A stretch of DNA of 64,000 bases from Psammoneis japonica. Lineage: Eukaryota. The stretch covers positions 198,874 to 262,873 of the forward strand of contig QPGO01000029.1 of NCBI GenBank assembly GCA_008632985.1, written 5' to 3'. Below are positions 2,941-64,000 of the stretch, piece after piece. Below the pieces are notes generated by a model, which was not told where the DNA came from, did not search any database, and saw only the letters and a list, made by a program, of their open reading frames with translations. A program made the position numbers and the translations under genes. How positions within the stretch are numbered: position 1 is the first letter of the stretch; each line of letters starts with the position of its first letter.

Positions 2941-4604
<1,664 letters not shown>

Positions 4605-20121: not shown

Positions 20122-23067
20122 TACGGCTCAGGGATGTTAGCGATTGCAAGAATAGTTCTTAATGAGATCAATGATTGCTGTTCCTTTTAGATGGTACTTC
20201 CTTCAATGACACGCCCAAGTTCGCCTGTTTCTGTTATCTGCGAAAAAACGTGTCGATCGCCGCGTAAGACTTGGTAGGTTTTCTACGGGCAAGTGATGGC
20301 ACGACTCAGGTGTTGCGGACCGCACTGGGACGGAATGATTCATTCGAAGTCTGCCTCAGCCAGTCACACCACCAGCACAAAGTGTCAATCAATCAGTCTT
20401 CTGGATTGTCCAGTTTGCAGGTTGGATGGATGGCATCCTTGGTGCAACCCACGCCACCCCATCTCCTGGCAGTGGTTGCAGCGAAGTCTGGCTGGCACCA
20501 GCTGTTGGCATTTCCACAGACCCTCGCTTTGCTCCAACACGGCGTTTGTCTGTGACAACTTCATGGAGAGTCCAGCCACACACTGGCTGTCAGCACTTTG
20601 TGATGGATCCTGCAAGTGTGTTTGTCTCAGCTGCATCATTTGACCTTGCCGCCTGCTGCATTCATTGAATCTCCTCCCACACACAATGCAGTCTCACCCT
20701 GCTGGCGAATGCCGCCAATGTGCCCTGAGCTGTGCTGGAGCTCACACATCTTGTTTGTCACAGTTGAGAGTGCTGTGTCTCATTGTTCTCATCATTGCTC
20801 TCATCAGCAATGAAAGTTTCTACCTTTGCCCTCATGTCTGCCCAGTCATCACCAGCATGTTGTTGTCTTTTGCTCCTGGCAACTTTGTCTTTGCCTTCTT
20901 TCTTGATTGTCGTCATTGACGGGCTTGTTGGTCTTGGCAGACCATCCCCCTTGGCAGCACCTCATTTTGTCATTGTCACTCTCTTTTTTTCTTTGGTGCT
21001 CTGTGAACAGCTTTGCAATGCAGAAACCTGTGTGCGACATTTAAGAAGTGATGGCAAACAAGCAGCACAGCTCTCTGACACCTTTGGTGACTCTCCAACA
21101 AGACGAGTTGCTTGTCTCAAGTTTGGTGCCACTCATGACTGTTGGTTGCACTTGATGTGTGCACCAACAATGGCTGGCATGATGCTGTTGTGCAAGGACA
21201 CCAAGACCCCTTCTTTGGGGCTGTGGCTGTTTGCTGCTCAGACCCTTTTTCTTCTCAAGCAACACGTGCCTGAGACATCAACAAGAACTCTTGGCGCAGT
21301 GGTGCCCAGCTTGATCTCCCAAGATGCACCAAGCTGCAAACAAACCATGTGCATGCAGGTGAGCCAATGAGCTTGTCATGCAAACTTTTGGATCCTTGTG
21401 GTGGTGAACACAGAGACTGTTGTGTGCCCCCAACTCTCTGCTTTCCCTTTTTCCTTGACAAAGGTTGTAAGAAACAGCGCTGCTTTTGGCCAGCTCCCAA
21501 GAATGTTCAGTTTCTCCCCACACACACACACACACACACACCACCACCACCACCATTGTGGGTGACACTCAGGCAGCATGCAGCTGACCCCAACACCCAC
21601 TTTGCAACCCACCAGCATGTGCGACAATGTCTCCTCATTCACAAAGTCATTGCATGAGCAGACACCAAGCCAAACAGAGACATTGACAGGTCAGCTTCTT
21701 TGCTGTCTTCTTGCTGCTGTCAATTTTTGAATGCTTGCCAGGATCTCTTGAGCCAATGACAGGCCCGTGTTTCTTGCAAAGCACATTTGCTTTGAACCTC
21801 TTTTAAACACTGCCCAAGCTGGACCTGTCAGGCTGTTTTTTGCACCGGCAGCTTGTTGTTCTCAGCTGCTTCAATCAACTCATCCTTTCTCCCCTCTGGC
21901 AGTGTTTTTGTGTGGTTTTGCAGAAGTTTGTTGAAGACATCATCTCTTGCAAAAACTCCCCCGAGTTTCTGTTGCCCCTCCCCCCACTGTTGGTTGGCAC
22001 GCTCTTTGCCAATCTTTCTCAATGGTGCAAGAGCTCCATTTCAGTCTTTAGAGTGCCCCCCTGGATGCACCAACATTTTTTCTTTGTCAAACATGTGCAA
22101 CTCTTTCAGCACATGGGTCACCATTTGCCTGCCTCAACCCACAATGAACTTTGGGAGAGAGCATCTCTGGCATGTGCCTGAGGGATGAATGGTCTGAGTT
22201 GGGTGCTGATGTCTGAGAATTTCTGATGTGCTAACATGGAAAATTCAACTTCTGTTTGAATGATCACTCAACTTGTCAATCTGCACCACATGGTGCTGGT
22301 GGCCAACCAACAGCGGTGCAATCTCAACCCCACAATCCCAGGAAAAACTCACCCACCAGCTGGGTTTTTGTTGTCTTTTGGTGGCAACACTCCACCCAGT
22401 CATCTGCTGAACCCCACATCTGTTGAGAAACTCACCTGTTGGTTGTTTTGCTTGCCTGCAGCAACACTCTCTTCCCAATCATCTGCTGGAATCCCCACAA
22501 CCAGCAATGAGCTCCCATCTCATGTGCAAGATGTCAAAAAGTGTCCTGCTTGTGGTGGCAAGCTTTGTCATGGAAGACTGGCTCATCACCTGCATCACAA
22601 CATCAGGTGCAGATTGGAGTTTTTGTCTTTTGGCAAACCTTGCACATTTTCCAACAGTCTGTCACCAACAACTCTCACCACAGCTCTGGTGCTCCAATGG
22701 GGAAGATGTTTCTGAGAGGAGTTTTGGGGGCAAATGTTCTGATGTGACAGCAGCTCCCACTGTTTGCAATCAACAACCAACTCCACCCAGTCATGCAGCC
22801 CTGGTCTTTCCAATTGAATTTCCAACAATGAGCTGAGATGGGTGGTCCCAGCAACAGCTCTTTCTGCAGTGGTGTGGACTCTGTTTCCCAAACTGATGCA
22901 CCCAGCAATTCCCACCAAGCCCACTTGGCAATGGTTGAGTCTCAATGCAACCATGTTGACTGTGAGGGGGGGTCCACAGCCACTCTGTTGGATTGCAGGG
23001 AATTTTCTTTGCCTGAGTTGGCCTGAGGAACACAACAGCAAAATGACAGCTGTGGCCTGGATGTGGA

Positions 23068-23081
23068 TGTTGTTGTTGTTG

Positions 23082-23121
<40 letters not shown>

Positions 23122-23222
23122 GCTGTTGCTGCTGCTGTTGCTGTTGCTGCTGCTGTTGCTGTTGCTGTTGTTGTTGCTGTTGTTGTTGTTGTTGCTGTTG
23201 TTGTTGTTGTTGTTGTTGTTGT
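23068..23222. repeat. Compound (GTT)n/(GCT)n microsatellite
   Basis: Directly visible; produces spurious poly-C/L/N/T ORFs. Confidence 0.95.
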
Positions 23223-23232
23223 CAACCACAGT

Positions 23233-23508
23233 TGTTGGACTTTCATGGCTTGCTGACCAGTGTGCATTTGGTCTCACAGACTCCTGACTTGTTGCTTGTT
23301 GCATGGCTTGCAAACACATTGCCATTGCTGTTGATCACTGTTGCCACATCAGCCGGGTGCAGAAAGTAAAAAGTGAGCACAAGACCCACAACTCAAACTA
23401 AGCTGCCAATGCAAATTCACCACATCATCCACAATCATCAGCATGTCTTTCCCCACAATGTTGTCTGTCTGTCCTGTGAAAACTGCCTCTCACCCCAATG
23501 TTCCAATG
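23233..23508. repeat. LTR-like repeat, copy A (related to 25311-25552; partial third copy at about 23786-23889)
   Basis: Starts TGTTGGA and shares blocks with copy B (ctcctgact, ttgcaaacacattg, aaaaagtgagca..agacccacaactcaaac, accccaatgttccaa). Confidence 0.65.
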
Positions 23509-23994
23509 CTTCTCTTCAACACATCCAGGTTCCCTGCATTTCCCACAATGGTCCCATCATCTGTTTGTGGGCATGCACAAATTGTGGAGCACAGTGCATG
23601 CTGCAACTTGAGGCTGTCTGAACTTGCTGGCCATTCTCAAGGACAACACCCAGACCATGATGCCAAATTCTCACAATGCAAGAGGAAAGCTGGACATTGG
23701 AACTGCAAGCTTGTCCTTCTGGTGAAGCTCATTGTGTGGCGCAGTTGGCAGTGCAGCACTGTGAAGATGAAGACACCAAAACAAATGACAAACTCACCAC
23801 ATTGTTCACAATTGTCAGCCTGTCATCTTTCCACCACAACTTTGTCTGTCTGTCCTGCAAAAACTGCCTCGAATCCCAGTGTTCCCACAAACTCCTTTGT
23901 GCAAGCATTTCATTGATTGACCTTGTGCTCATCAAGAAGTGAGCAAGGACAACACTTGGAATCCATGCCACCCAACACCACATCAACCACTCTG

Positions 23995-25000
23995 TCAATT
24001 CCCACAGTCTGCATCATCTGATTTTGCCAACAAATGATCATTGTCAGGGCAATCCATTCTCACATGCCCAACCTCACCACATTTCCAGCATCCAATCAGC
24101 CTTTTTTTGTTCTGTGCAAAACTTGCACCATCAGGTTTCTTGTTTTTGGTCCTGCAAGCATCCAACACCTGCAATGCCTCCTCAACTGAGTTGAAGCCAC
24201 AACATGTCAACCCCCAAGGTGAGCTGCAAACATGGGTCTTTCAAGACGTGCCAATGTTCCGTGGCACCTTCCACTGGCATCACCACCAACAACTTGTTTC
24301 TTTCTTTGTTCTGGGTGTTGTCAGCATCCCTGCTGAACCCATCTTCTTTCTTGGCAATTGCTTCTGGGATGATCCCATCACAAGTTGTTTCTGCTGCTTC
24401 CACCACACTCATGAGCCAACTGCAGTGATCTTGAACAAGTGCCTCTCCTTCATCTTGACAAACAAGTGCCAGCTGCTTTGTCCAAGCCTTGACCATCTGG
24501 ACATGTCTTCTCATTTGCACTGAACAAGATCAACTTGAGAACATCCAGTGGTGCTGCTGCACCCCACTCCTTCATGACTCTAGTTGACTCCATCACTCCT
24601 TTAATTTTGTGATGGACGGCCTGCTGCACACATTGCCCACAACAACATCAAATGCCTTTGCCTTTTGCATCTTGCAGATTGCATTCTGTTTTGCATGGTG
24701 GCTGCATTCCTTGCCTTGGATTGCCTTGTCCTTCTCAGACATGGTGATTCCCGATGGCAAGTGCACTGGCTCTTTTGGGGTTTCTCTCCTGGATGCCAGC
24801 ACCCGCATCTCTGGCCTGGGCATTCTTCCAACATGCTCACCAATCTTCTTTGTGGTTTCCATGCAACCATCTGCATGTCATCCTGACTTGGCAATGGCAT
24901 CATGCACCCACTTCTTTGAATCTTTCATGCTTGTGCACTCAGCTGTGTCCTTGCCCATCTTTTCTGGGGGGGATTGCTTTTGAGTTCCACAGCTCACCAA
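23995..25000 (-). pseudogene. Degenerate Ty1/Copia (CoDi-like) gag remnant
   Basis: Zinc knuckle CWKCGEVGHVRMDC and upstream gag-like segment TTKKIGEHVGR...EMRVL...QKAKAF. Frameshifted. Confidence 0.7.
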
Positions 25001-25310
25001 CAGCTGTGCACTCTGTCTCACCAACCCCAACACAGCTTTTCCACCACACCCTCCTTCAGCAGACCTTTGACAGTTTCTTCAACAGCAAGGCTCTCCAGAG
25101 ATTGCTTCTTTGCCCTCATCCAGCCAGCTTGTTCACTTTGTTTTGCCAACATGAGGCAGACCTCTGGATTCCTGTTGACTTCCCAGCCCACTCCTTTGAA
25201 CTCCTCTTGACTTCCCAGCCCTTTTCCTTTGGTGGATTCCTCTTGACTTCTTCCCAGCCTTCTGACAACACCACTCCTTTGAGTGTCATGTCATGCCTTT
25301 TTGGCTTCTG

Positions 25311-25552
25311 TGTTGGAGTTTTGTGGCTTGCCAACAAGCACACATTCAGTCTCACCAACTCCTGACTCGCCGCGCAGCTTGCAAACACATTGCTGTTGCT
25401 GTTGACCACTGTCACCAGGCTAAAAAGTGAGCATGAGACCCACAACTCAAACCAAGTTACAGTTCCCACATTCTCCACAATTGTCAGTGCATCTTTCCAT
25501 TGCAACTTTGTCAGTCTGTTCTGCAAAAACCACCAACCCCAATGTTCCAACA
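25311..25552. repeat. LTR-like repeat, copy B, 242 bp with inverted termini TGTTGGA...TCCAACA
   Basis: Perfect 7-bp inverted ends with TG..CA, lying upstream of the minus-strand gag remnant. Confidence 0.7.
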
Positions 25553-25859
25553 CATGCTGGATCATGCAGGCTGAGTGCCATGACTGTTGAGACACTCGGG
25601 TCAATGTGTTGAGCATGTGGCACACACCAGAAGGGCCACATGGCTCTGAATGCCACATCAGTCGAGACACACAGGTCAGTGTTTTGAGCATGTGGGGAGC
25701 TTTTGTTTTGGTTTTGGTTTTGTTTTGTTGTGCACCAGTCTGATGCAAAGCTTCACAACAAGCAATGTCCAGGCCACAGCAGCCCTTTGACAATGCAGAA
25801 TGCAGCATGAGGATGCATGCACACTGTGGTGCAAATGTGACCAGCTGTGTCCCCACAAT

Positions 25860-26560
25860 GATTGGGGCACAGCTGTTGGTGTTGGGCGGGCCAGCATTGG
25901 AGCAGCTGATGTCAAATCAGTTGGTGGCACTGGAGTGGTTGGCACTGGAGCACAATTTTGGTGTTTTTGCAGCTGGGTGGCACTGGTGTGGTTGGAGTTG
26001 GGTGCTGCTGGGCCAGCCAGTGCTGAAGACCAGCTGGCGCCAGTGCTGGGCTGGACAAGAACACTGGAGCAATTTTTTGTTGCAGGTCAGCTGGCACCAG
26101 AGCAGCTGCTGGAGTCCAAGCAGTTGGCACTGGAGCAGCTGGCATTGGAGCAGCTGTTGGCAGCTGGCACATTGGGGCAGCCATGGTGGCACAAGAGCAG
26201 CTGGCACATTGGGTGCCAGAGCAGCTGGCATTGGACCAGCTGGTGTGATGTTGGGCCAGCTGGTGCTGGTGTCAGGCTGGCCAGCACTGCAGCAGTTTGT
26301 GTCAGACCAGTCTGCTGCATCCGAGTGCTGGAGTGGCTGGCATTCTTGGGCCAGTTTGTGTTGGAGCAGTTGGCACCAGACACCAGTTGATGTCAGAGCA
26401 GTTGGCATTTTGAGTGGTGGCTGGTGCCAGGCCAGTTGGTGCTGGACCAGCTGGTGCTGGACCAGCTGGCATTTGGGGGTTCTTCATTGGACTGGCTGGC
26501 ACTGGGCTGGTTTGCACTGGAGCAGTCAGCGCTGGAGCAAATGGAATTAGAGCCAGCTGT
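25860..26560. repeat. Degenerate short-period tandem repeat (units like gcagctggcactgga)
   Basis: Recurrent cagctgg/ttggcactgg/gagcag words over about 700 bp. Confidence 0.75.
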
Positions 26561-27948
26561 CACTGGATGACTTGGCATTGAAAAACTGCCATGGTGCCAA
26601 ACAGATGGCCTGTGTGAACAAGGTGCAGGGCAGGAGCAATCTTTGCTGCCCAGACAAGAACAAAACAGGCCACTTCTGCCCTGGAGTGGATGCAGAGGAA
26701 ATGGATGACAACAGCTTGTGTTGTTGCTGTGCAACAAAACACAACTTCTGCCATGAAAGCTCTTGTTCATAAAAAAATTGCTTGTGCCATGACTGATGAC
26801 TGCCTCAACAAATTGGAGCTGAACAAAACACGACTCTTTACAGGAAATTCAGCAGCCAAAACTTTGTTGAAAGGATTTTGTGCACACTGAAATAAAACGA
26901 TCAGTCTCAACAAAGCAGAGTTGAAGAAGATGTGCACTCTCTTCACAGGATGTGTTCAGCACCTGGAACTTCATGTTGAAAGGATTTTGTGCAAAGCTCA
27001 AAAAGGGCAGTGACCACCATCAATGAACTGGAGTCTTTGACAAAATGTGAGTTCTCTCAAACATTCAGCAGCCAAAGGTTCATTGAAAAATTCTTGCATG
27101 CACTTTGAACACAAATGGTCAATCCATGCCATGGAAACTTTGACACAATGTCAACTCTCTTTGTCTGGTGGCTGTGTGCAAATGGAGCAGCTTTGTGAGT
27201 GATTCCCATGTCACCCGTGGATGCATGTGACATGGATGTGATCAAAGCTGATGCACACAATTTCACTCAACAGAGTTTCAAAAATGCAGGCTGGTTTAAA
27301 TTGTTTGTTCATGTGCAGAGTGAACCCTCACAAATTTTTGGATTTGATGATGTGGAGTGTTTCTGGGAAGGTGGGTTTGCAATGACCAGCCAACTTAAAT
27401 GGTTGGGTTGAGCGCAAGCAACCAACATGGCTGTGACAGCAGCCACGTGCAAAGAACTGAACAGAGTGCATGAATGATCAACATCTGGTGGGAAAATGAT
27501 CTCTTCCACAGCTTTGCTGTCTCATGAATTGCAGCATTGCTGCTGAGTGCCATGAGCTGCCAAGCTGACAAAAATGTGAGTGCATTGTTGTTGCCTGGCT
27601 TTCCGACTGAAGAGTGAATGCTGGTTGGACACCACAGTCTCTTGCAAGCAAGAGGAAAAATGCGCAAGTTGCAAGGCTGTTGGGGCCCTGCAGAGCTGCA
27701 ACAACCTGTTGCTGAATTTGAGAAATGCCGCCCCAGCAAAGCTCTGTGTCTGCTGGGGCTGGCAATCCTTGCACCAATTTCTTTGTTTGCCTCAACAAAA
27801 TGGCACAGGGTCTGCGGGAAATCACGGATTGAGGCGAAAAACGCACACAAATCTTGCAGAAATGTGACGAATGCGGGTCTGGTCTCACTTGTCTTACGGA
27901 CGCCTGCCAGGTGGGCCCAAGCTGTCGAAGCCAATTGCATCTACAACA

Positions 27949-29311
27949 TCAGGCTAGAGATTGCAAACTGCGCTGTTTAGAAAAACAGAACAATGCCTGC
28001 AAGCAATCATCATCATCTTTGAGGTTGCCCTTGCTGTCCGAATCGGAGTCCATGTCATCACAGCCGCTGACGTGCTCTCCCGCCGCCGCTGCACGTCCGC
28101 ACTGTGCCTCACGACTGCGCCTCGCTTCCTTCTTGGCAATTGCGGCATCTAGAGGGGACTGACCAAGAAACTTGATCCTTTCAACTGCCTTGCCCTCTTC
28201 TGGTGGCTTCTCCACCACCACCAGCTCCATCGAAAGGAGCATGTGACCTTGCGCCTGCTCCATGGGTTCTTCGTTGACATGAACAAATGCTTCGAGCTTC
28301 CAACCGGCCTTGCTGCTTGCAGAATAAAAATCACTCTCACAGGGGAATGGAAGGCGAACAGTGTGGGGGCGGCAGAGAACCATGCGGCGTTTGCCGTTGC
28401 CAACGGTCTCTTCAATGCCTTGAGACTTGAGCAGCGCCTGTCCGGCTTGCTCGATTCCGCTTTCCTTCAGGACTTGGTCTTCTGTAGAGAGCCTAGAAGC
28501 AAGAACAGATTCGCGCACACGATCCTTCTTAAACATCCAAGAAGGGATGCGCTCATTGATGGTCACCTTGGTGCTGCAATCAGACACCTTCGGGTGCCAG
28601 TGTGACGTGGTGAAAGGCAGAACAAGGACATCCACAGTCACGTGCATGCGCTTGTCGGACGCCGCCCATGGAGACGCTAAGAAAAAGTAGCCACACTCAC
28701 GAGTCATCGCTCCCTTCTTCACAAAGGCGTCTGCCTTCTTGTTGCTCCCCACCTTCTTCTTGCCAGAAGACGAAATCGTAGCAGATGACTTGAACTTTGA
28801 CGCGAGGTCGTTGTTCACGTCTTGGGACTTCTTGGGGGCAGTCTTTGTCTTGCCCGGCACACTGGTGCCAAATTCCTCGTCACTTGAGCACGCGCCTTTG
28901 TCTTCTGAGGATTCGTCTTCGGTTTCCTCTTCCTCGCTCGACTCCTCTTGGTCTTTCACTTCTTCCTCGGCACGTCGCTTGGTGCCTGTGGCAAGTCTTG
29001 CAATCAAAGCAGATGCCGGCAGACGATGGCACGAGCACAAGAACAACAAAACAAGCAAGAATGGCATTGTTGTGGTGCTTGCCTTGCTTCCGCCTGCCTG
29101 CAAGAAGTTCGTCGACTTCCAACTGCTTGCACTTCTTGCGGTGCTGCTGAGCGAAAGTCTGGCACTTCGGAAGGTCACTGAAGTGCTTCTCACATGCCTT
29201 CTTGACGTGTTGCAAGTCAATGAGCTGCGGATCAATCTTGCCAGCTTTGACAAGCTCTGCAAGCCTTTTGTTGTGTTCTTTCGTCCAACGAGCAGAGCTG
29301 CCGTTGCTCAT
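27949..29311 (-). pseudogene. Harbinger accessory ORF (N-terminal helical domain, possibly Myb/SANT-like, then acidic tract); inferred intron 28986-29082
   Basis: Exon 1 MSNGSSARWTKEHNKRLAELV joins in frame to GTKRRAEEE through a GCAAGC..CAG intron. Lies inside the TIRs. Confidence 0.65.
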
Positions 29312-30081
29312 GGCGTTCGTCGTGGCTTCCTCCTGTTGTGGGTTGTGGGCCGTGTTGAGTGTGCCGTGTGAACAGCAAACAGCAGAGCTGCTTTGGTTTT
29401 TCTGAAACGATCGATCAACAAAACCGACACCAACGGACAAATGGCGCGATCTCTAGCATGTCTCTACGACGAACTCGTGAAAACGACATTTTTGTCACAC
29501 ATTTTTGGGCCCCCAATTATGTGGGCTATTTGGTTGCGTCACAGCTTTTCGACAAAAAACTTTGATGGCGCAACTTTGGCTTTGCATGTAACCCGGACAT
29601 TGCGCAGAATCACTGCCAGCAGCTACGTCACACAAAGACCCGGATGTAAAGCTTTGGTCACAGTTTTTCACTGTACATCCGGGTTCTCTAAGCTCGTGTA
29701 GAAAGTGCACTGAGAATCCTGTGGGATTGAAGAAGAAACCCGGATGTGCAGCGAAATGTCTGTGGCCACAACTTTCCGTTGAGCCAAAGTTTTGTCTCAC
29801 TTTCTAAAAATGTGTGGCAGAAAATGCGCGAGCTCACCTAAAAAAAAATGCGTCTTTTCTGCGCAAGAGCTGCAAAAACATCCAACTGCATCACGTCGTG
29901 CACCTGGCCAAACGAGAGATCTGTGCATCATGGAGGTGGCATCCCACGTGCGCACTGCGCAGCAGTGCTGCTACAGTCCACACTGGAAGACATCCCAGTC
30001 CCACCAATCGTTGAGATTTTGTTGTTGCGCTTCGCGCTTCATGCTGAGACAACATCATTTTGCTCCGGCCCGCCACTCGCC

Positions 30082-31084
30082 ATGGCCGCTTTTCAACCAG
30101 ACAAAAAGAGGATGTGCTGGCTTGCCCTCGGACTGCAGGACCTCATGAATTTGGGGCGTGGAATGATGAACAGAGGCGACAAGAAGTTTGGCGCCACAAT
30201 GACCGAGGACAGGCATTTTCGTGAGTTTTTTGGTTGCGGCCCAATCGTGGCTCTCACGCTGTGGAACCTCCTCGTCCACCACGATGTGCTGCCCCACGGA
30301 GCAAATGCCTGCCACATGCTGTGGGCACTTGATTTTTTGAAATCTGATGGCAAGGAAACTGACCTTGCCGGCAAAGCTGGGGGAGTCGACGAAAAAACTT
30401 TCCGAACGTGGAAGTGGCCAATGATTGAGGCCATTGCATCACTCGAGCCACACTTGGCAAGTGCCCAATTGTGACAATGTTTCCACATGTTTCAAAAAAT
30501 TGATTCTCACCCGCATCATTTGTGTTGTTGTTTGTTCTGCCCAGACAATTTGGGAGAATCGCCGCACTGGTGATGTCGGAAACGATTGTCTGGTTGCTGT
30601 GGATGGAACAGACTTTCGTGTCCCGAATCACGGCAGGAAGTTTTGCTCTCATAAATTCAACGACTGCGGACTTCGTTACAAAGTGGCAGTGTGCATTTTG
30701 ACCGGTCACATTGTGTGGATTAATGGGCCCTTTGTGCCCAGCGTGTACAACGACTCAGACATTTTTCGATCGGCATTGAAGACGGAACTGGACAAGGGGG
30801 AACGCGCAGAGGCTGACGATGGGTGCGTGGGTGAGTCCCCCATCTGTGTTAAGTGCCCCAGCAGTTTTGCAAACCCGAAGGAGATGGAAGAAATGCAGAG
30901 GCGTGCTCTCAATCGACAGGAGATGTGCAACGAACGCTTCAAAAATTGGACAATTCTGGAGAAAAGGTTTTGCCACAAACCGCTGTCGAAGCATGCCGAT
31001 GCATTTCGGGCTGCAGCTGTCACAACACAGCTTGCGATTCAAAATGGTGAACCGCTTTTTAATGTAGATTACAAGGATCTATAA
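30082..31084 (+). pseudogene. Harbinger DDE transposase, mutated; inferred intron 30457-30544
   Basis: VDGTDF, SHKF..GLRY.V, WINGPF, EADDGC (expected DDGY), RQEMCNERFKNW. Phase-0 intron GCAAGT..CAG. Confidence 0.85.
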
Positions 31085-43171: not shown

Positions 43172-43408
43172 CTTCACAATCTTCAGTCGACTGCAGTACT
43201 CGATGTGAAAAGGAGTTCAAAGTTGGAAGTGGTGAAGGCAAAAAAAAAAGTGCGCGAAAAAAGTGACAGGTTGTGGTGGAATAGGTTATGTGTCATGTCG
43301 AAAACGAAGGGAGAAAGCCTCGCTCTCTAGAGCTAGAGTAGATAGCTAGAGAGTAGAGGTATTCACTCGAATTCAATCCTTTTATTCTATTGATTAGATA
43401 GTTTATTA

Positions 43409-51912: not shown

Positions 51913-51987
51913 CAGACCCACGAAAAAATGATGTGTTGTCTCAATGACACCATGAATGAAAACATTTCTCATTTTTTCGTGGGTCTG
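51913..51987. repeat. Perfect 19-bp inverted repeat with 37-bp spacer
   Basis: CAGACCCACGAAAAAATGA (51913-51931) and its reverse complement (51969-51987). Confidence 0.9.
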
Positions 51988-52561
51988 GGATGTTCTCGCA
52001 TGAAATAGAAGTCGCATTCGTCGACTGATGACAACAGTGGTTTGGAGCAATGAAAAAGATTTGCGCGGTGAAGTGTGCACAGCACACATGGTTTGTGAAT
52101 TCAAAGTTCCAGATTCCAATTTTACGACGCACACCCAAGTGAATTTGACACGGACAAACAAGCTCACCGTTCGCCTGGTCAAACGCCAAAACTTTTGACG
52201 CAAGATAAGCCATGTGCACTGGCACTAAATTCACACACAAAAATTACGTAGAAATTTTCCTAAAAATCAGGGTTTGGGCCGATTTCGCTCGCCAGAAATG
52301 AGCGAACGTCGCCAAAGGCCACCTGTCCACTGCCCACCATGACGACTTTTCCCGTTGCTGCCCACCCACACCCTGAATTGTGCCATCAAGGGACGGTCAA
52401 TGTTTGCTGATGCATGCCCCCAGTGGTTCATTGCACTGAGATGGGCAAAGCAATTCGATGGCATTGCATCTCGAAGTGCCCGGGTCTTCGTCACTCGCGA
52501 GAATGCAACTTCGCACGTGCATCGGAGTTTGCAGATTGACCGATCCACGGAAACTTCCTCT

Positions 52562-52928
52562 TGCACTGTGCTCGAAGAACGAGTGCAAACGAAAGTAGAG
52601 TGGTGTGCGAAAAGTGGAAATTATAAGATCAAATTTTGCTCTGTGATTTTTGGTTTCTCCGAACGAGTTCTCAATGGCCCAAAGCTTCTGCACTGCTTCT
52701 GCAGACAAAAGGCCTTTCGGAGAATACATTCGTGACAACAGATTGTCCGGATGTGATTGCTGTTGACACGCAAGATGTCAACATCGTCAATCGATCGTAT
52801 TTGCAATTCTCGACATCCGATCAACTCTGTGTGATCGTTCTGTCCTTTGTGCGCATCCACGACTGTGGTGCGATTGACGTGTAAATGACATGCAATCATG
52901 GGCATGTGTGTGACAGTCGCACACTGCA
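52562..52928 (-). repeat. Gypsy 3' LTR
   Basis: Ungapped match to 56919-57285. Confidence 0.93.
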
Positions 52929-55900
52929 TTCGCCTCCCTAATTGCACATTGGAGTCATTTGTAAGTGGACCATTCGACGGACATCAACAGTGTCAACAAT
53001 GTCTCCACTTTCACTGCACTGTGCCATCAGCAATGACTGTTGTTGTTTTGTACAGGCAACACAGGGCCGTTCCAATTTCCGAATGTCTTTTGAGAGTGAC
53101 ATTGTTTGTTTCTCACTTAACATGCACACACACAGTGTTGCGTCGAGCATTCTCATTGACGTTCTTGTTGATGTGAACACAAGGACCAATTGTCCTGGAG
53201 CAAGTGTTTTCCTGATGTCGATTGTACATGGCATCGTGCCCAGCACTTAATGTGCGCTCTTAATTGTGGCGTTCACTTGCTTGCTTGTGGATTTCATGTA
53301 GTTTGGCGGGCTCACTTTATGTGCCACATTGCTCTGCTGCACTGCCACGTTTCACAAGCAACAACAAACGATGGTCAAAGATGTTGTGACCATTTCGTCT
53401 TGACAATCAATCCTGTGATGGTTGTGAATTCCATCATGGATTTTTTTTTGCACTTCAACCATCTATCAGTTGGATTTTAATTGTCATTTGGATGTTTCTT
53501 TCTGACATGCCGGTGTCATTTTGTCATTCCGAAGGCACTGGTTTCGTGCACTGAGTGGACAAATGTCCATTTTTCTTTTCTTTTTCTAGATCTTTGGCAC
53601 ATCTCGTGTGTCGACATGATGTGTGTTTTAATGTCTTGCCTCGTACATTGTACAACACAACCGTGCGGGTGTTGTGAGATTGTCTTTTGCCAGTGTGAAG
53701 TGGACACGTACAATGTGTGCCAATCTGTCACTGTTTTTTCCTAAATCGTCCTTTAAAAAGGCGATTTTATCCTTGTGACATGAGCATTTTTCGATCTCGC
53801 TCGCCTCCACGAAAAGTGTTCGTATGACATGTCGCGTCCGACAATTTGGAGGGAATGTCTGTGTCCCGTTTTAACGGCAGGACATTGTCGTAGGATTCAA
53901 TTTTCCACAGCAAGTCGGCTGATCGCGTCTGTCGCGACGATGTTCGCCTTGCCCTCGTTGTGTTCTAATTCGGGACTGAAGTTGTCAACGTGTGACTTTG
54001 TCCGTTGTGTCTTGTGATCCGTTCATGCACAAATCTGTTGGCCAAACAGCACATTTCGGAATTTTGTGAGTGTTTTCACCATGGACAGAAGTTCTTTTTT
54101 CTGTTGCAACACATGACATTGTAATCCGTGTGTGACAACAACACAGTTTTTGATTTGATGCGCTCCACATTTTCGGAGACTTTTCGTTCCGTACTTGCAC
54201 TTTTGCCGTTTGACCTTCATTGAGGTGAATTTGGCTAGCATTGCACAGGAGATCGTTGAGACTGCATGTCTCGACAATGGCAACGTATGACAACGAGATG
54301 TCGCAGTGTTCTTTGCGTTTTTCTCGTGTTGCGATTGGTTGAATCGCCTCCATTTTCTTTGCAATCGATTGCATGTCGTTGCGCATGGAAGTCTTGACAG
54401 TTCATTTCAAGTTAAACAGTGAAGGACTTTTGTTGTTGACCTTCTAAGCAACTGTTCCAGTCGTTTGAATGCCGCACCAAGCTGTTGCTTGTACAGGTGA
54501 CATTTTGAAGTTACTTTTGTCAGGCACAAACGATCACATGCAGTCGTTCTGACAACTTCAAACCTGTCATGAGTTCACTCAAGTGTTGCACAAAAATGTC
54601 TGGGGCTCCACAGATTCTCATTGGAAGTCCACAGCACTCATTTTCTCCCCACGGCATGATTTTCGTGTGAGCACGACGTGTGCTTTTTTCATTTGACATG
54701 GTGGCATTCCATGTTTGAATCAAACAGATTGCATGCATGAAACGTTCTTGCTTCAACGGCATTTCCTGAATGTTGGGTAAAGGATGCACCACCTGCACGA
54801 ACCTCATGCCAAGCTTCTGAGTGTCAGATGCGGTCGAACTCGACCTGTTTTCTTTGGACAACGAGTCTCAGAGTGACTCATTCAGAGCAACTTCATTCTT
54901 GAGACTTCAATCTTTCACAACAGGTCAAACTCCTTTTGATTGGACGCCTCCAAAGACTGTGACAGGAGAAGGTTCTCACGCGTCGTGGAATCGCGTCAGA
55001 TTTTCCACGATGAGATCCACTGATGCTTCCCATGCATTCGTCTGAGGAACTTTTCAAAACGATTTCAACCTCTTGAGAAGAAGATTGAGTTGGTTGTGTT
55101 CATTTGGGTCAGATGCATCGCCGTAGTTGTCACTTGATTAAGATCGATGGCGTGACAATGTGAGTCGAGGACCATTGGCTCCGTTATTGACTCTGTTCAC
55201 GGCGTCACATTTTTCAATGTGATCGGTTTTCAGCTTGAAAACATCGGCGTCGAAGAGTGTGTGAACATTCTTCATAAGGTGATTGCTTCTTCCCATTAGA
55301 TTTCTTCATTTGCGTAGTCCAATGTGACTTGCAGGACTGGACATTAAGTCACGTCCCATGATCGTGTCATTTGAACCTGAAGAAAATTTGGTGTTTTCAA
55401 CATGTGATGTTTGCACGTCAGCATGCCTTAAATTTCGCATGGTGAGAACTGAATTCGGTGTTTACTGTCAGTCGTAAAGAGCTCACCCTTGGTTTCCCAA
55501 GTTTTTGGTGGCGGATTCTTGTGTTCTCAACTTTCGCACGAATTTGCGCAAAATTGTGGTTGACGATGTTCCGTTGTCGATGGGAACACGTAGATGCTTT
55601 TTTTTTTTTTCCTTTCCCAAGGAAGCATTCATATAAATGATGACTCCTGGACTAGCATGAATTATTTCTGCCTTTTTTCTAGGCTTCCTAATGTCCAGTA
55701 AAGCACACAATTCGTGAACAGACCAAAATTATTCTTCGGATTCAGTCTGGATCATCCGATCAAATTGGTGTTTTTCTTCACTGAGGGCATCAGAATCTGA
55801 TTCTTTGCCCCCATGCTCTTTTTCTTTGTTCAAGGAACTCGCTTTGAGTGTTTTTTGAACCGCCTGATCAATCATGACGTTCATCTCTTTTTTTGCGAGC

Positions 55901-56918
55901 GGCATTTTCGTTGTCGCGACGCGACCGCGTGCGATTGCCATTTGAACGGCGCATTTTTGGGTCTCTTTCAGAGTCACCCTTGCACTCTTTTGCTAGTTCA
56001 TTTTTAGAATGGCTTCAATCCGTGATGTGGGTGTTCTTTTTTCAAAGACAAGACCTTGCATTCACTTTGGATTGTTCTGGTACCATGTGGGAGACCATTT
56101 TTGGAACCAAATTTGGAACCTTTTTTATTTTGGAACCAACTGCGCTGTCAGAGCCTGAGTTGATATGTTTTTTCGTCACGGACGTCATGAACGACCTTTA
56201 GATGACTCAAAACTTAATCAGCTCATCAAGGATGAGTTGCAACAGTTGATTGTTTTGGACAGTAGACTGATGCTGCCATCCTTGCGGTGCGAGTGATAGC
56301 TGATAAATCAGCGCTCGGTTTCCCGCTAGATTCGACTTAGAATCCATCTGAGGGTCGCATGGACTCTCATCATTGACCTCTTGGGTCTAACAGAGGCTTT
56401 CTTGCTGTCAAGCAGCTCTGGTTTCTTCAGGTCGTCTCGAAAATAATTTCCCTGATTCTGAAGTGCATTTCCTCGGAGGACATGAGTTGTGAGACGCTTG
56501 AGGTACTTTCCAACGATTCCCTCTTGCTCCTTGAACTCGAGGATCATCGATTCGGTCTCAAAAAACTCTCCAATGGTCTCTCCTTGCATGGTAGACGTAT
56601 TTCTCGGATCTGATCGACTCGGAATTTGCATTCTCTGCAACCATGACTTGGTGTAGATTTTTTGATAATGCGGTGTGCTTGAGAGCCCTTGATCCTTGGG
56701 TGCTTGGAATAGACCGCATTGGAGTGAATCCTCTTGTCTGGTAGACGAAAAACAGCGTTCCATCTTGAGGTGCTGCTCGGCTTGAGCTTCTTCCGCTCCG
56801 AAATCGATTCCAGCAGAACTGATGCGATTCGTTCCTGTTTATAGAAGAATTTGCAAAGGCACACTAGTTAAAATTTTCATTTTCCGTGCTTTTTACCTTC
56901 TGTGGTGTGTGTGCACAA

Positions 56919-57285
56919 TGCACTGTGCTCGAAGAACGAGTGTAAACGAAAGTAGAACAGTGTGCGAAAAGTGGAAATTATAAGATCAAATTTTGCTCTG
57001 TGATTTTTGGTTTCTCCGAACGAGTTCTCAATGGCCTAAAGCTTCTGTGCTGCTTCTACAGACAAAAGGCCTTTCGGAGAATATATTCGTGACAACAGAT
57101 TGTCCGGATACGATTGCCATTGACACGTGAGATGTCAACATCGTCAATCGATCGTATTTGCAATTCTCGACATCCGATCAACTCTGTGTGATCGTTCTGT
57201 CCTTTGTGCGCATCCACGACTGTGGTGCGATTGACATGTGAACAATGTACAATCACAAATGTGTGCACAACAGTCGCATGCTGCA
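56919..57285 (-). repeat. Gypsy 5' LTR
   Basis: Ungapped match to 52562-52928. Confidence 0.93.
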
Positions 57286-59079
57286 CTCTGCTGAGAACTG
57301 CTTGCAACCAGACAAGAATTTGGGTGTCTTTTGGTGATTCAGATTTGGGTGGAACCGTGCCGTGTCGGCGAAGCCCCGATCAGAAAGCATGCTGTGCCCC
57401 TTTGGACACTTTTTCAGTCGTGGTGCCCACAGCTCGACCAGAGCTTTCTCTGACACTCGTGCAAGGAATGGATCAGTGTGCTCAAAGGAAAGTCCCGCTG
57501 GTGTAGACCAAGAGATGCAACGGACGGCACTGGCAGGTGCTTTCTCTGAGCGACATGCTCGTGTAAAAAGGGTGCTCTTCCGGGGCGCGCACATTTTGAA
57601 GTCTTTTCCGTCAGGCACGGCGCCAGTGTTTTGCATGTTCTCATCCTCGCAAGCTTGAGGGCAAGTTGCATCAAGGAATTCAGCACTTGTGTCTAAAATT
57701 GAAAGATCCTTGCTGGCCTCTCCCCACTTCTTGATCCAACAATTGACATGCCGACCGACGGTTGTCCTGTCGAATTTTCCCCACATGTGGGCCAAGGACA
57801 TTGTGCTGTGCGGTCCATGAATGTGAAGCTTGGCAAGAAGACAGCCCTCAAATTTTGTTGTTCCATCTTTTCCATTTGGAGGAGCAGCTGGTGGCTTAAG
57901 ACCAAACAGGCCGTGGACGTAGAGCACACAGTCCTTCCAAGTTTTAAATCCGAGATGATGGCGCGCTGCGTCTGGATTTGCAGCATGCCATTTCTTGCTG
58001 GTGAGTGATCGACGAGAAAGACCAAGGTCGCAAAGAGCCAGCTTTTCATTTGCTTGTTGCATGAGGAGCTGCACTTCTCTCATCTTTTGTTTGATTGCTT
58101 TTTCTTGGTGCTTTCGTTTGTCAATGTGTTCCTTTTCCCTTCTCGTGCACTCAGCTTTTACGTCTTCTGTCTTCTTCTGCAGCTCACTCTCCTTGGCCTC
58201 CAGTTGTTGCTTGAGTGCCTCAAGAGTGTCTTGCTTTGCGGCAAGTTGGTTGGTGGCGGAGTTCACAGCTGCCCCCTTTCGAGTGATGGCGGGGGCATGG
58301 AACTGTGTTGCCGATTCGATGGCAACTTTCTGCTCCAATTCATCTGCCGAGCATTTAAACTGTGTGGCTGGGTGGTTTGGAAGTGGAAAGCATGTTCCGT
58401 CATTTCGAGGCAGCTTGTCGGCCTCGGCACAAGCCAGGCCAATGTTGTTGAGCTTGAAACCGACAGACCTTGGAATTGATTCTGGTGCTAGCTTCCTCTT
58501 TCCGTCGGCTGACACTTTGAATGGATTGTGTGCATCCTCTGGAAAATGAAGAGATGCAAACACATGCTTTGTGTTGGATGAACAGGATGGATCCTTGACC
58601 CTCTCCTTTGCTTTTGGACCAAGTTGCTGAAGAAACCTGGCTCGTCTAGCTGCCTTTGTGTCACGGCCGAGCTTCACAGCCTTGGGAACATGGCCAGTCT
58701 TGAGTTCCTCTTTTGGTTCTGCTGGAAGTGTGAAGCAATTGTGGCGTTCAGGACAAACTGTCAGCAGTCTCGCCATTTGAGTGTCACAGTCTGGGTTGCC
58801 ACAAACACATTTCGTTTGAGATTTTGCGTGTCGCTTTGGTGTGGTCCACGTTTTGTGTTTCGCCGATGACTTTCGCACAGGCGACTTTGCATCGCTGAGG
58901 GTGGCGTCTGGTTCAATCTCCGTCACGGCGCGCTTGGATTGAGAGCGCGTTGTCGCGGGCATGGTGACAAAGCTTCACAGATGCAGCAGCAACCAATTGT
59001 GGCTTTGAACGACCAGATGCTGGACTGCACACATTGACAGAGAGTTGTGTCAGGCATGCTGCCAGTTGGAAAGCGAGCG

Positions 59080-59306
59080 TTGCATTAATCGCACTGCCAC
59101 GAACGCAAGTGTTGCATCATTCGCACTGCCACGAACGCAAGCGTTGCATCATGCACACTGCCAGGAATGCGAGCGTTGCATCAGGGCCACTGCAAGAAAC
59201 TCGAGCGTTGCAATGGACTTTCAGGAGGTGTCCTTGCTGTGCATCCACTGCCAGAAACTCGAGCATTGCAATGGACTTTTAGGAGGTGTCCTTGCTGTGC
59301 ATCATC
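59080..59306. repeat. Tandem repeats (about 32-bp units, then two of about 58 bp) between the divergent transposon genes
   Basis: Recurrent cactgcca.gaacgcaag.gttgcatca and gcaatggacttt.aggaggtgtccttgctgtgcatc. Confidence 0.85.
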
Positions 59307-59405
59307 CATTGAGAAAATCATTGGATGGCACTTGTCGCCAAAAAGATTCGGTGCTCTCTTTCCGCGATCTTGCGTTCTCACTCATGCATCACACCGCACC
59401 ACACG

Positions 59406-61919
59406 ATGGGAGCAAACAAGCTTTCAGCTCTTCTGCGGTCGGCTCATGATGCCAGCGACAAATTTGCAGACAATGCCACCATCAAAGGAAAGGTGTTCGG
59501 ATTCGATCTAAGCGTCCTTCTCCATCAAGCCATCAATGGCATCGAAGGAGCAAGCGACTTTCACATGCAGCCGCCAATGCCTGTCAGACAGGTTGACGTG
59601 TTGTGCCGAAAACTCATTCGACTTGCGCGAGAGGCAGAGGTGACGTTGAAAGTGGCAGCAGACGGAGCGCATCATCCCGGAAAAGCTGGCGAAAATGAAA
59701 GCCGTCGAGCTGAGCGACAAGATGCATTGGAGAAGTTACTCGACTGCTTCGCTCTTCCAAACCCAGAACAGCACCACGCAGAAGTCGAGAAAGTGATGAA
59801 AAAGGCGGCTTTTGTTGGAGAAGATGCGATTGCTCAAGCTGTCAAAATGTTCCAGGAGGAAGGCATCGACGTGTTTGGTGCCCCGTTCGAAGCCGATTTT
59901 CAACTGGTGTTTTGGGAGTTAAAGGGCGTGACAAATGGCGCCATCAGCATCGACTCTGACATGTTTGCCATGGGGTCAATGCTGTTTGTTGACTTGCTCA
60001 AGCTTCGAACACAGGATGGAAAATGCAAAGCACTTGTCCGAGATGATGCAATGAAGACGGATCGATTTGCCGAAGGGAGCAGCGGGTGGTCACATGACGA
60101 CTTCCTCACATGTTGCATTCTCAACGGATGCGACTTTATCCCGAAGCTGTGCAATCTTCAGAAGAAAGAGATGCGATCATTCATGAGCAAGTGGGTTGCA
60201 GCTGATGCAACAACAAAGGACAGCATGTTGATGGACCTTGGCAATGAGCGCCACTGGCCGCCAGGAAAGAAAAAAGGTGGAAAGCTGGCGACGGACTGCC
60301 TGGCATGATTCAAGACAAGCATGGCACTTTTCATGCACTCGCCCGTCATTGACATTAAAGAAGACGGCGCCCATGTTCTTGTGCCAATGCGACCTCTCCC
60401 AAATGACGAGGCATCATGGAATTCACTCCTTGGACACAATCCATTGCACTGGTTCTCTTTGAACAAAATTCCTTTCAAAGATGCATGCGAGCTCAATGTG
60501 TGGGCTCGCACTGGGAAGCCACTTGAAAGTCTTCCTCTCCCACGAGACCCCGACGACCCAGAGAGGGAGATCCCATTTGGATCCATTGTCGACTTTGATG
60601 TCATGCCTCTCCATCACTGCCGGCATTCCTCTCTCTTGTTGTGGCTGTGCTGTCATGGCATCCCGCATCCAAAGGGTGCCAGCATTGCTGAGCTCGTAAA
60701 ACAAGTGCAACTCGCCGTAGAGGTTGGACGACCACTGGACTGTGACCGAATCGCAGTGGAGCCTGCCAACGCGGCACAGTCATGCACATCATGGGAAAAG
60801 CTGTTTGTTGAGACAGAGCTTGTCTGGAATGATTCTCTTCAGGATGCCCTTCAATTTATGCGCAGTTCTTCGATCCCAGAGGTCAACATGGAACACATCA
60901 ATGACACATTTGGAAACGGAAAGAATGGCACAAGAGAGTGTGCGTGGATGAGATGCACCAGCGGACACCTTGACATTTCTGCGCTCCGGACTGCAATCAC
61001 ACAGCTGCAAAACATAAAAGGCAAGGTGAATGTGGTTGATTTCAAAGTCACTCCGAGCATGAAGAGCGAGACATGCGGAGTTTACCTTGCGTTCGCCGAG
61101 AACGGCACATTTCTACACGACGCCTCAAAGTGCAACTGCCCCAATGGATGGTTGTTCTGCAGCCACATGCTGGCAGCATTTCTTCTTTTATTTTTGATTC
61201 AACTGATGTCGGAATGGACTCCTGAGGATCTGTCGCACTTTCTGCCAGAGCCAATCAAATCATTGCAATCTGCACCACTTTCTGCAGAATTCGTGTTCGT
61301 CGAGATGAAAGCCAAGGATAAAAACGAGAGCAACAACAAGAGCAAGAATTCAGAAAGTAAAGAAACAGATGAGGAGCGAGAAGAAAAGAAAAGGGCCGCT
61401 TGCACAAAGCGAGTGGGGAAAGTGCTCGCGAAAGAAGTGAAGAACTACACCCGAGAGACGAATGAACGAGACACGGATGAACGGGACGAGCGCCTTGCGA
61501 CAGAGGACGATGTGAAGAAGGGAAAGAAGGATGGTGACATTGAGAGCATTGACCCATGTGCAAGGCTCCGCAAACACTTGGGAGACAGCAATGCTGCAGC
61601 CAGCATTGCCGCCGGGAAAACTCCGAAGGGGAAGGTGTCAGGGAGCGCCGTCCAGGAGCACAACAAGAAACTCGTCTATGGAGAAGAAAGCGTTGAACGG
61701 AAAATTGAAAAGATCAGATGACACAATCGACTTCATAACATGATGAAGGACAAACACATTTCAAACGACAACTCAATCTTTCATCACTTTGAGCACTTCG
61801 AGAAGCAGCATCAAGAGGATGCAGCGCGGCCAAAACAACAACTTGGAGGTGATGACATGTCTCTGCCCGAAGAATGCGACAAAGAGTTCATGGACGAATG
61901 TTTTAAGGAGGGTGGTGGT
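59406..61919 (+). pseudogene. XPG/FEN1/EXO1-family 5' nuclease fused to a SWIM-type zinc finger; two in-frame TGA stops; truncated by the Copia insertion
   Basis: MGANKL, FGFDLSVLLH, ADG..HPGK..EN..RR, APFEADFQL, SIDSDM, ILNGCDF, CNCPNGWLFCSH. The three ORF pieces are in one frame. Confidence 0.82.
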
Positions 61920-62258
61920 TGTTAGATTCACAGTCTTTAACACACAGACACTTGCATGTGTGGGGGTGCTTTGTTGCAGCGGATGAAGCTCATGGTTCGT
62001 TGCTGCGTTTTGATGCTTGTGTTGGTCGAGACACAGTCCTGCAGCTGAGCAGGATGGACAAGACCTCGGAGGTTGGCAGCAATGTGAATGGCGACAGAGG
62101 CAAACAGACGCTTGTTGAAAGTCGTTGTCTAGAAAATTATGATGAATGTCGTTGCTTCTGTTTGAATCGATTTTGTGATGAGCTAATTGTTTCGAAGAGA
62201 AAATCTGAGTCTGGGTTGCAGTCGTGAGATGCAACCAGAATGACGTTGAGTCGTGACT
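61920..62258 (-). repeat. Probable 3' LTR of the Copia element
   Basis: Follows the purine tract GAGAGGGAG on the minus strand and ends ...CTAACA exactly where the nuclease ORF breaks. Partner LTR is outside the window. Confidence 0.7.
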
Positions 62259-64000
62259 CTCCCTCTCAACCGAGAGAGCTTGCCAGCCCACAAGAGCCTT
62301 TCTAGCCGTGCGGAACGCATCGGTCCGTAGTCCCTTCGTGAACTGATCGGCTAGTTGCTCTAGAGTGCTGACAGGTTGGATGTCGATCTCCAATTGTTCG
62401 ACTTTAGTCCTAAACCAGTGGCAAGGGATGCCGATGTGTTTGGTTCGCGGAGACAACTTGGGCATGTGTGCGAACTTGAGGCACGCGGAGTTATCTTCGT
62501 ACACAACGGACGCAGGTGGGACATTCTGCTCTACAGGCGAGTCATCGGTGCCTTGGGTTGCGAGCTCAAAAGCCTTGGAGTGAGTCGTGACAGGGTTTTG
62601 GCGGTCAGACTTTCCGAATGCGTGGTGGTTGAGCTCCTTGAGAACTTCACGAATGGGGATGAGATCGCGCACAGCTTGAGAAAGTGCGACACACTCCGCT
62701 TCCACAGTCGACAATGCTGCAAGAGTCTGCAGCTTGGACACCCAGATGAGCGGGCAGCCGGCGCAGTAGACAAGGTGTCCAGTCCTGGACTTGACAGAAA
62801 CTGGGTCTTGACCATCTTCCACACCAAATGACCCCGCGAAGTCAGAATCGACGCAACAATCAACTCGATGATCTTGCACAGGCTTGAGAATGAGACCTTC
62901 AGCAGCAGTTGCTTTGAGGCATCGGAGCATCCACTTCACTGCAGCAGCGTGGGACGCTCGGGGCGCAAACGAGAATCGAGCCACTTGATGTGTGGCATGT
63001 GCAATGTCTGGCCGGCTGTTCGCTGCCAAGTGCATCAACATTCCAACAACTGAGCGACAATCGCAGGGTTCATCAAAAGGCAGGCCGTCCGTGTCGGCAC
63101 CAACAGCCGCAGGCAGAGCTGGAGCAGATGCTCCATTGCAATCCTGCATCTGTGCGGTGCGCAGGACCTTGTCAATTAGACCGGGTTGAGTGAGTGGAAA
63201 TCGACCCTCGGAGAGCTTTTCGATCTTGACACCGAGAAAGTCACCGACTTCTCCTTCGTCTCTAAGTTCAAACACGTGGCGATGTTCGTCATCGGAGACT
63301 CCTAACTTGCGAATTTCGGCTTCTAGAGCTTCAGCTGAAGCTCCAGCAAAAACGGTGTCGTCGACGTGCACCACACACATCATGCCCTCTTTGAAATACA
63401 AACAGGGATCTGTGGCTGAAGGCACCCATCCGCGCTCGGTTAAACCAGCTCGTAACTTCTCGTAGAAGCCCTTGGGAGACTGTTTTAGGCCGCACAGTCC
63501 TTTCAAAAGTTTGAGAACCACACTGAGTCCCGACCTTGGCGCAAATCCCTTCGGCGGTGTTGTGCAAACTTCCTCGGCGACATCAGCTTGGCAAAAGGCT
63601 GTGGCACAGTCCACCTGTCGTGTGGTCCATCCCTCCTTTAATGCCGCAGTGAGCATGAGTCGGACACTGGACCATTGCACAACCGGCGCGCAGGTTTCGA
63701 AGTGGTCGACTCCTTCTTTCTGCAAATCACCGCGGACGCAGTGTCGGGCCTCATGCTTGAGAGGGGTTCCATCTGGGAGTCTCTTGAGCTTCAGCGCCCA
63801 TGTGCCTGGAAGTGCATTCATGTGCGGCTGACGCTCGACTGCTTTCCAGGCTCGACAATGTGTGAGTGCGTTGACTTCAATTTTCATCGCCTCAATCCAT
63901 TCGTCAGCATCCGGACCTTTCAGAGCATTGTGTGACGAAGGCATGTCAGGGTCCTTGGTTTTCTTGCTAGCTGCGCAGGCTCGTGGATCGCCGACATTGA
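61920..64000 (-). mobile_element. Ty1/Copia (CoDi-like) retrotransposon, RT and RNase H region, mutated, running off the window
   Basis: VRGDLQKEGVD, GLKQSP, DPCLY, HVDD (for YVDD), SRPDIA, DSDFAG, SRTG, STVEAE, EDNSAC, RTKHI, ADQFTK. Confidence 0.95.

Follow-up and report, generated by a model that had tools for sequence, protein, structure and literature searches.

Within the transposon islands of a 64,000-nucleotide stretch of the genome of the diatom Psammoneis japonica (assembly GCA_008632985.1, contig QPGO01000029.1, positions 198,874 to 262,873; hereafter the window), the DNA has very probably been hypermutated locally and in place, with TpA converted into TpG or CpA far faster than other substitutions accumulate and with the neighboring genes spared. 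The change runs in one direction, is restricted to TpA, has hit both strands and acted after insertion; it affects long terminal repeat (LTR) elements as well as a DNA transposon, and it stops at sharp borders. A first-pass annotation made from the letters alone had proposed that TpA is nearly absent from transposon blocks and kept in flanking genes, and that A>G changes on either strand at TpA are the cause. Both proposals hold, the former on the ratios given next and the latter on the replacement of tyrosine by cysteine or histidine, an LTR pair that differs by transitions only, and balanced TG and CA products.

All composition and border results refer to this one window. The observed/expected (O/E) ratio of TpA is 0.55 in the gene region at 1-20,289 (751 TA) and 0.57 in that at 33,901-47,091 (517 TA), against 0.03-0.27 in seven contiguous segments that cover 20,290-33,900 and 51,650-64,000. 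The borders of the two blocks are sharp at a 250-nt scale, and the second block begins near 51,650 rather than at 51.9 kb. The segments are as follows, where the count "at gene ratio" is the number of TA expected for the segment at the gene-region O/E, and where deficit and excess are relative to gene-region ratios:

20,290-27,750: old, unrecognizable transposon relic; TpA O/E 0.04, 18 TA against 272 at gene ratio; TA+CG deficit 647, TG+CA excess 720; CpG O/E 0.11
27,751-31,500: TpA lost (O/E 0.18), 41 TA against 127 at gene ratio; TA+CG deficit 132, TG+CA excess 134; CpG largely kept (O/E 0.80)
31,501-33,900: old relic continued; TpA O/E 0.03, 4 TA against 88 at gene ratio; TA+CG deficit 188, TG+CA excess 219; CpG O/E 0.24
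51,650-52,561, minus strand: a PIF/Harbinger-like DNA transposon, left part; the last ~60 codons (C-terminus) of its transposase lie at 52,384-52,561 (from tblastn and reading of the flank); TpA O/E 0.24, 15 TA against 36 at gene ratio; TA+CG deficit 18, TG+CA excess 28
52,562-57,285: LTR element of 4.7 kb, with LTRs of 367 nt at 52,562-52,928 and 56,919-57,285; TpA O/E 0.27, 94 TA against 202 at gene ratio; TA+CG deficit 121, TG+CA excess 181
57,286-62,020: right part of the Harbinger-like element; TpA O/E 0.11, 32 TA against 166 at gene ratio; TA+CG deficit 206, TG+CA excess 191
62,021-64,000, minus strand: 3' part of a Ty1/Copia element (reverse transcriptase to RNase H; RVT_2, E 5.6e-33), running off the window; TpA O/E 0.23, 24 TA against 61 at gene ratio; TA+CG deficit 54, TG+CA excess 48

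The TG and CA ratios rise to 1.3-2.2 in the TpA-poor segments, and the combined deficit of TA and CG approximately equals the combined excess of TG and CA in all seven. The remaining 12 dinucleotides stay at 0.86-1.15 of their gene-region value, AA among them at 1.09, i.e., without depletion. TAA and TAG stop codons are nearly gone, e.g., 20,290-27,750 holds 342 TGA, 21 TAA and 8 TAG, and six-frame open reading frames (ORFs) are consequently lengthened in the TpA-poor blocks. CpG is almost gone as well at 20.5-27.7 kb and 31.5-33.9 kb and is near normal (O/E 0.75-1.04) in the other TpA-poor segments; the simplest account of this loss, which marks the oldest blocks, is a separate and slower decay of methylated CpG. 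Since CpG is kept at 27.75-31.5 kb and lost on both flanks, the segment at 27,751-31,500 is probably a younger insertion into the old relic. Among the TA that survive, ATAC, ATAT and ATAG stand at 0.22-0.31 of their gene-region share and TTAA is enriched 4.5-fold (chi-square p 6e-21), a flank preference to be taken as a lead only, as its baseline is gene DNA rather than ancestral transposons and a one-flank model misfits ATAA.

The timing and the specificity of the changes can be read from the LTR element. The two LTRs of one element are identical at insertion, and these two now differ, which places the changes after integration, on DNA and on both strands. There are 34 mismatches in 367 nt, and all 34 are transitions, with 0 transversions. 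Twenty-two of them form 11 adjacent TG-vs-CA swaps, as expected from two independent hits on one ancestral TA; a further seven show TA in one copy and TG or CA in the other, and two show CpG in one copy and TG or CA in the other. Counted by column, 29 of the 34 fall in TA/TG/CA sets, two at CpG and three elsewhere, and the LTRs differ at 18 ancestral TpA sites. Eleven or more swaps were obtained in none of 20,000 random-transition shuffles. Under a simple model, the estimated loss per LTR copy is 0.73 for TA and 0.045 for CpG, while changes at neither TpA nor CpG amount to three positions in 367 nt across the two copies. The products are balanced, with TG:CA at 9:8 in one copy and 6:6 in the other, and TG and CA alternate within the LTRs; same-strand product runs were looked for and none was seen. 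The changes in the LTRs came at many separate times or sites after integration. A native composition of the element as the cause of its low TpA is excluded by these differences between the LTRs of one element.

The direction of change is given by conserved protein positions. For the Copia ORF, 77 homologues of 50-60% identity were aligned (among 120 listed), their matches spanning from query residue 5 or earlier to residue 560 or later, and 304 columns conserved at 70% or more entered the polarity test. None of the 14 conserved tyrosine columns is kept in the window: ten are now cysteine (TGY), three histidine (CAY) and one tryptophan. Isoleucine is kept in 7 of 16 columns, methionine in 5 of 8 and threonine in 11 of 17, losses that arise because A-initial codons change when preceded by T; the remaining residues survive in 227 of 249 columns. 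The tyrosine losses include column 211, where YVDD has become HVDD (63,357-63,368, minus strand), and column 169, where LYGL(R/K)Q has become LCGLKQ (63,480-63,497, minus strand). Half of the 54 Copia substitutions (27) disappear when TG and CA are reverted to TA; with six control rules the number is 0-2, and with the rule AT>GT/AC it is 13, largely the same Ile/Met>Val events.

The same treatment of each of the 77 homologues gave a median of 92% of conserved tyrosines kept and a minimum of 69%. The TA frequency is 0.0122 in the window Copia sequence; in 40 related loci it averages 0.0458 and is nowhere below 0.0220. The tyrosine share of the window Copia sequence is 0.7%, against 2.1-4.4% in 40 loci with full-length matches. 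In 66 related metagenome Copia loci, the median TpA O/E is 0.635, the lowest value is 0.42, and none lies under 0.3. Low TpA is thus no native property of the Copia family. The Harbinger-like transposase was aligned with 45 homologues, the first in a list of 150 to measure 400-700 residues; no tyrosine column reaches 60% conservation, and tyrosine is kept in one of the five columns conserved at 50% or more. These numbers are small and point in the same direction, with ARLYPN>ARFHPN and KLRYTCE>KLRCTCE as examples. Regarding the motif replacements listed in the first-pass annotation, HVDD, LCGLKQ and the DDGC of an ORF in the first block are present in the window, while the Gypsy change EY>EC was not found and no Gypsy-type domain appeared in the Pfam scans.

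Read data add a view of other copies and of a second haplotype. Contigs were built from exact 31-letter words of sequencing runs here called X1, X2 and X3, the last of which gave none on the window. One X1 contig of 4,799 nt equals 57,256-62,054 and another of 432 nt equals 52,158-52,589, each with 0 differences and at a depth of ~38; contigs without differences stop at 52,589 and start again at 57,256. A total of 4,645 X1 contigs matched at 90-99+% likeness, and the summed X1 depth runs into the thousands over 52.0-57.3 and 62.0-64.0 kb, which indicates many diverged copies of the LTR element and of Copia in the sample. Over 57.3-62.0 kb the summed depth is that of the single contig, and no second copy was found in X1 at a likeness of at least 90%, a threshold below which independently mutated copies could fall. 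The action on repeat chromatin that the first-pass annotation had inferred finds no support in this part of the Harbinger-like element. Of 214 places that differ between X1 and the window, 184 are transitions. Among the 40 differences listed out of 231, three at the edge of the second block, 51,651, 51,682 and 51,695, read TG, TG and CA in the window and TA in the second haplotype, and at 52,986, 56,725, 62,467 and 63,857, in the high-copy elements, the window has TG or CA where all other contigs have CG. Within a 4.3-kb insertion at 47,092-51,393, the window has TA at three of the six listed differences, against TG or CA in the other copy. These haplotype and copy differences fit ongoing or recent activity, on small numbers.

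The pattern would be accounted for by an enzyme that modifies adenine at TpA, for which a DNA-acting adenine deaminase of the TadA/ADAT2 kind is the likeliest candidate. TadA, ADAT2-ADAT3 and the TadA-derived editors convert an A preceded by U or T to I, which is read as G, and the natural tRNA target of TadA/ADAT2, A34, follows U33; the natural enzymes differ from the candidate in acting on tRNA, and no deaminase gene lies within the window. Chromatin or small RNA would guide such an enzyme to foreign DNA that is silenced, a form of targeting guessed because of the sharp borders. The outcome would be a defense in which catalytic tyrosine codons, including that of YXDD, are destroyed and reading frames stay open.

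The base that is modified might instead be thymine, e.g., by enzymatic oxidation or glycosylation at TpA (5-hydroxymethyluracil or base-J-like) followed by mispairing or faulty repair that yields T>C, or adenine might be N6-methylated at TpA and then deaminated. TpA is palindromic and its products are balanced in both LTRs, so the sequence cannot tell which base was hit, and in dinoflagellates thymine is hypermodified with a preference for TpA. Repair by a glycosylase, however, should leave some transversions, of which there are none among the 34 LTR differences, and we know of no such modification in diatoms; a route of this type is considered improbable. Error-prone repair synthesis in silent chromatin, either Pol eta-like at WA or Pol iota-like with G placed opposite T, would draw on the fact that A>G at TA belongs to the spectrum of Pol eta. 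It is very unlikely, however, given that AA is not depleted, that the LTR differences are transitions without exception, and that 73% of TA was lost per copy against three LTR changes outside TpA and CpG.

Two further explanations are harder still to credit. A-to-I editing of transposon RNA by an enzyme of the ADAR or ADAT type, fixed by reverse transcription, would fit the U that typically precedes the edited A both for ADAR and in fungal ADAT-type mRNA editing. Editing ahead of reverse transcription is nevertheless contradicted by the LTR differences at ancestral TpA sites, which put the events after integration, by the equal hits on the two strands and by the fact that a DNA transposon is affected, and we give it next to no weight. 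As little can be given to a sequencing or base-calling artefact on modified DNA, which the first-pass annotation had proposed to check on reads. No record states the library type of the assembly or of the runs, which leaves such an artefact some room, but the 4,799-nt and 432-nt contigs match the window perfectly, and the 11 TG-vs-CA swaps occur in identical local sequence, where a systematic miscall would repeat the same call.

Several observations weigh against reading the islands as adenine editing of mobile DNA at TpA. A>G on one strand is indistinguishable from T>C on the other, so that the sequence fits a modified adenine and a modified thymine alike. TpA events do not explain 27 of the 54 Copia substitutions, and the signature is found in none of the 66 metagenome Copia loci, so that it is not general among diatom Copia copies. 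The 4.3-kb insertion is mobile and has normal TpA (O/E 0.67), which indicates that not all mobile DNA is affected and that either mobility and moderate copy number are insufficient by themselves or the process lags behind insertion. Three of the LTR differences are A/G beside, not at, TpA (52,600; 52,901-52,902). Lastly, runs X1-X3 come from one sample, which is possibly the source of the assembly of the window. As for the three LTR differences, they are of the AATA vs AGTG and TAAA vs TGGG types, and each adjoins an edited TpA; the specificity of the process may be relaxed beside its primary TpA site.

Among known systems, repeat-induced point mutation (RIP) of ascomycete fungi shares with the process described here in-place hypermutation of mobile DNA by transitions, sharp borders and the loss of coding capacity. 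RIP consists of C>T changes, chiefly at CpA, by which TpA increases and stop codons arise, whereas here TpA is destroyed, TAA and TAG stops disappear and frames stay open. The first-pass annotation was therefore right to set RIP aside, as the direction here is the opposite one, with loss of TpA and gain of CpA and TpG. Deamination of 5-methylcytosine probably explains the CpG loss at 20.5-27.7 and 31.5-33.9 kb, and probably also the TG or CA found in the window at the four positions where the other contigs have CG. It cannot remove TpA, however, and CpG loss in the LTRs is about 1/16 of TA loss.

A much closer likeness is provided by the chlorarachniophyte Bigelowiella natans, in which a process of this type, not known to the first-pass annotation as a characterized pathway, has been measured. 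According to the text of a 2026 preprint, two integrated viral regions in mutation-accumulation lines of this species mutate ~1000 times faster than the remaining genome; 230 of 231 mutations in them are A>G/T>C, all of these GC-biased ones lie on TpA, and low-TpA coding sequences are enriched for reverse transcriptase and DDE domains (Mettrop et al., bioRxiv 10.64898/2026.01.13.699255). The authors propose a DNA adenine deaminase of the ADAT2 type and also discuss ADAR, and the hypermutation is described as active only in some lines (bioRxiv 10.64898/2026.01.13.699255). As far as that text goes, the two cases agree in A>G/T>C changes only, at TpA only, on both strands and in foreign DNA only. 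The rates in B. natans are orders of magnitude above the rest of the genome, for which the proxy here is a TA loss of 0.73 per copy against three other changes in 367 nt of each of two LTR copies. They differ in host and target, B. natans being a rhizarian with integrated viral DNA and P. japonica a stramenopile with LTR retrotransposons and a Harbinger-like DNA transposon affected. They also differ in extent, the nucleocytoplasmic large DNA virus region of B. natans having an O/E of 0.45 in the preprint text while the segments here are near saturation at 0.03-0.27, and in the type of evidence, which is mutation-accumulation lines in the former and comparative here. The co-loss of CpG in old blocks and the flank preference of surviving TA are seen here and not in the preprint text, which, with its supplements outside this text search, mentions neither diatoms nor stramenopiles, CpG or trinucleotide context.

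The literature search returned no report of such hypermutation for diatoms and matched the B. natans preprint and RIP papers alone. The window is accordingly filed as a second, distant lineage with the newly described TpA hypermutation, distinguished by transposon targets and near-saturated TA loss. It is tentatively suggested, as a possibility that we hold rather less probable than its negation, that a guided DNA adenine-editing defense is common to diatoms and chlorarachniophytes and may be old in SAR (stramenopiles, alveolates and Rhizaria), in which silenced mobile or viral DNA would be recognized and TpA deaminated on both strands, so that tyrosine codons would be erased and frames stay open; a single ADAT2-like deaminase with activity on both A and C might then account for the TpA loss and also for the extreme CpG loss of the oldest blocks.

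With a second distant lineage, the B. natans finding would no longer stand as peculiar to one species; it points to a widespread eukaryotic defense by genome editing, with a direction contrary to that of RIP. In those diatoms that can be manipulated genetically, the search for the enzyme and for its targeting signal would be easier, and a natural DNA adenine editor that acts on chromatin would be of interest for base editing. In annotation, spurious long ORFs are to be expected from such islands, where TAA and TAG stops are lost, and transposon domains escape profile searches.

The second block, 51,650-64,000, is a nest of three elements, namely, the PIF/Harbinger-like DNA transposon, the LTR element and the Ty1/Copia element. 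Besides the parts listed above, two ORFs of the Harbinger-like element were delimited:

57,256-58,974, minus strand: ORF with the N-terminal part of the Harbinger-like transposase
59,313-61,718, plus strand: second ORF of the Harbinger-like element, XPG_I (E 1.9e-10), with one in-frame stop at 60,306-60,308

The LTR element, which has TG...CA ends and CTCT on both sides, is inserted within the transposase ORF, and the two halves of the transposase are separated by 4.7 kb. The transposase ORF has 485 homologues at E <= 0.001, with alignments down to E 1e-90, and DDE_Tnp_4 was detected in 10 of 22 scanned homologues (E 1e-3 or better); the window's own ORF gave no DDE_Tnp_4 match in Pfam up to E 1. 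Harbingers usually carry a Myb-like protein, in place of which an XPG_I nuclease domain is found here. The XPG_I ORF resembles the N-terminal part of one fused relative (P0269), where it is joined to the transposase; no homologues of this ORF were found among longer proteins, which is weak evidence. The Copia ORF, 61,776-63,998, aligns at 50-60% identity with the last 570 residues of polyproteins that are 1,300-2,400 residues long. Its homologues end at residue 572, whereas the window ORF is open to residue 741, i.e., for ~170 codons more. The codons TGG CAA stand at 62,274-62,285, where the homologues end, and a lost TAG or TAA stop would explain the read-on.

In the first block, 20,290-33,900, most of the DNA is unrecognizable to Pfam. 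Scans of 40 + 120 + 84 ORFs from both blocks gave RVT_2, XPG_I and zf-CCHC alone above the cut-off, and tblastn on the window with 8 Copia and 6 Harbinger-type proteins gave no match in 20-34 kb. Two matches were placed in it:

23,998-24,240, minus strand: zf-CCHC gag remnant (Pfam, E 1.9e-05)
30,425-31,081, plus strand: ORF with DDGC at 30,815-30,826 and a DDE_Tnp_4 (PF13359) match below the cut-off (E 0.021)

The old relic also contains a (TTG/CTG)n run of ~190 nt at 23,058-23,248, which locally inflates TG counts.

Between the second gene region and the second block lies the mobile insertion referred to above:

47,092-51,393: polymorphic insertion of 4.3 kb, absent in the second haplotype, where X1 and X2 contigs join 47,091 to 51,394

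At both of its ends stands GCCGCGCAGG, a target duplication of ~10 bp as in Mutator-like elements, a label that is a guess. Within the insertion lie an ORF of 697 aa that matches nothing in Pfam and, at 47,855-48,186, three tandem repeats of 111 nt. In run X2, which is recorded as "DNA?", joints of 79-164 nt with CT..AC ends at 49,435-50,808 resemble spliced minus-strand RNA; the long ORF in this part lies on the plus strand, and no inference on expression is drawn from these joints. X2 gave little or no cover over 52.0-64.0 kb. Over 51,394-52,032, the second haplotype departs strongly from the window; one X2 contig has 39 substituted letters and 8 gaps in 637 nt, and transversions are mixed with transitions up to 51,618.

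The TpA-normal parts of the window carry few-intron genes, namely, those for histidyl-tRNA synthetase, two phosphoglucose isomerases (PGI), a cyclin, VPS8 and a fumarase-type lyase, and further genes for OsmC, an HMG-box protein, an ABC transporter, Brix and a histidine phosphatase. The two PGI genes, at 2,695-4,128 and 14,132-15,946, lie on opposite strands ~10 kb apart, and one copy is intron-less and full length while the other is split. The intron-less PGI at 14,132-15,946, for which the protein collection searched contains no identical entry, matches its best diatom counterparts (from Eucampia, Dactyliosolen, Proboscia, Seminavis and other genera) at 74-79% identity, which marks the window as that of a diatom and not of Bigelowiella.

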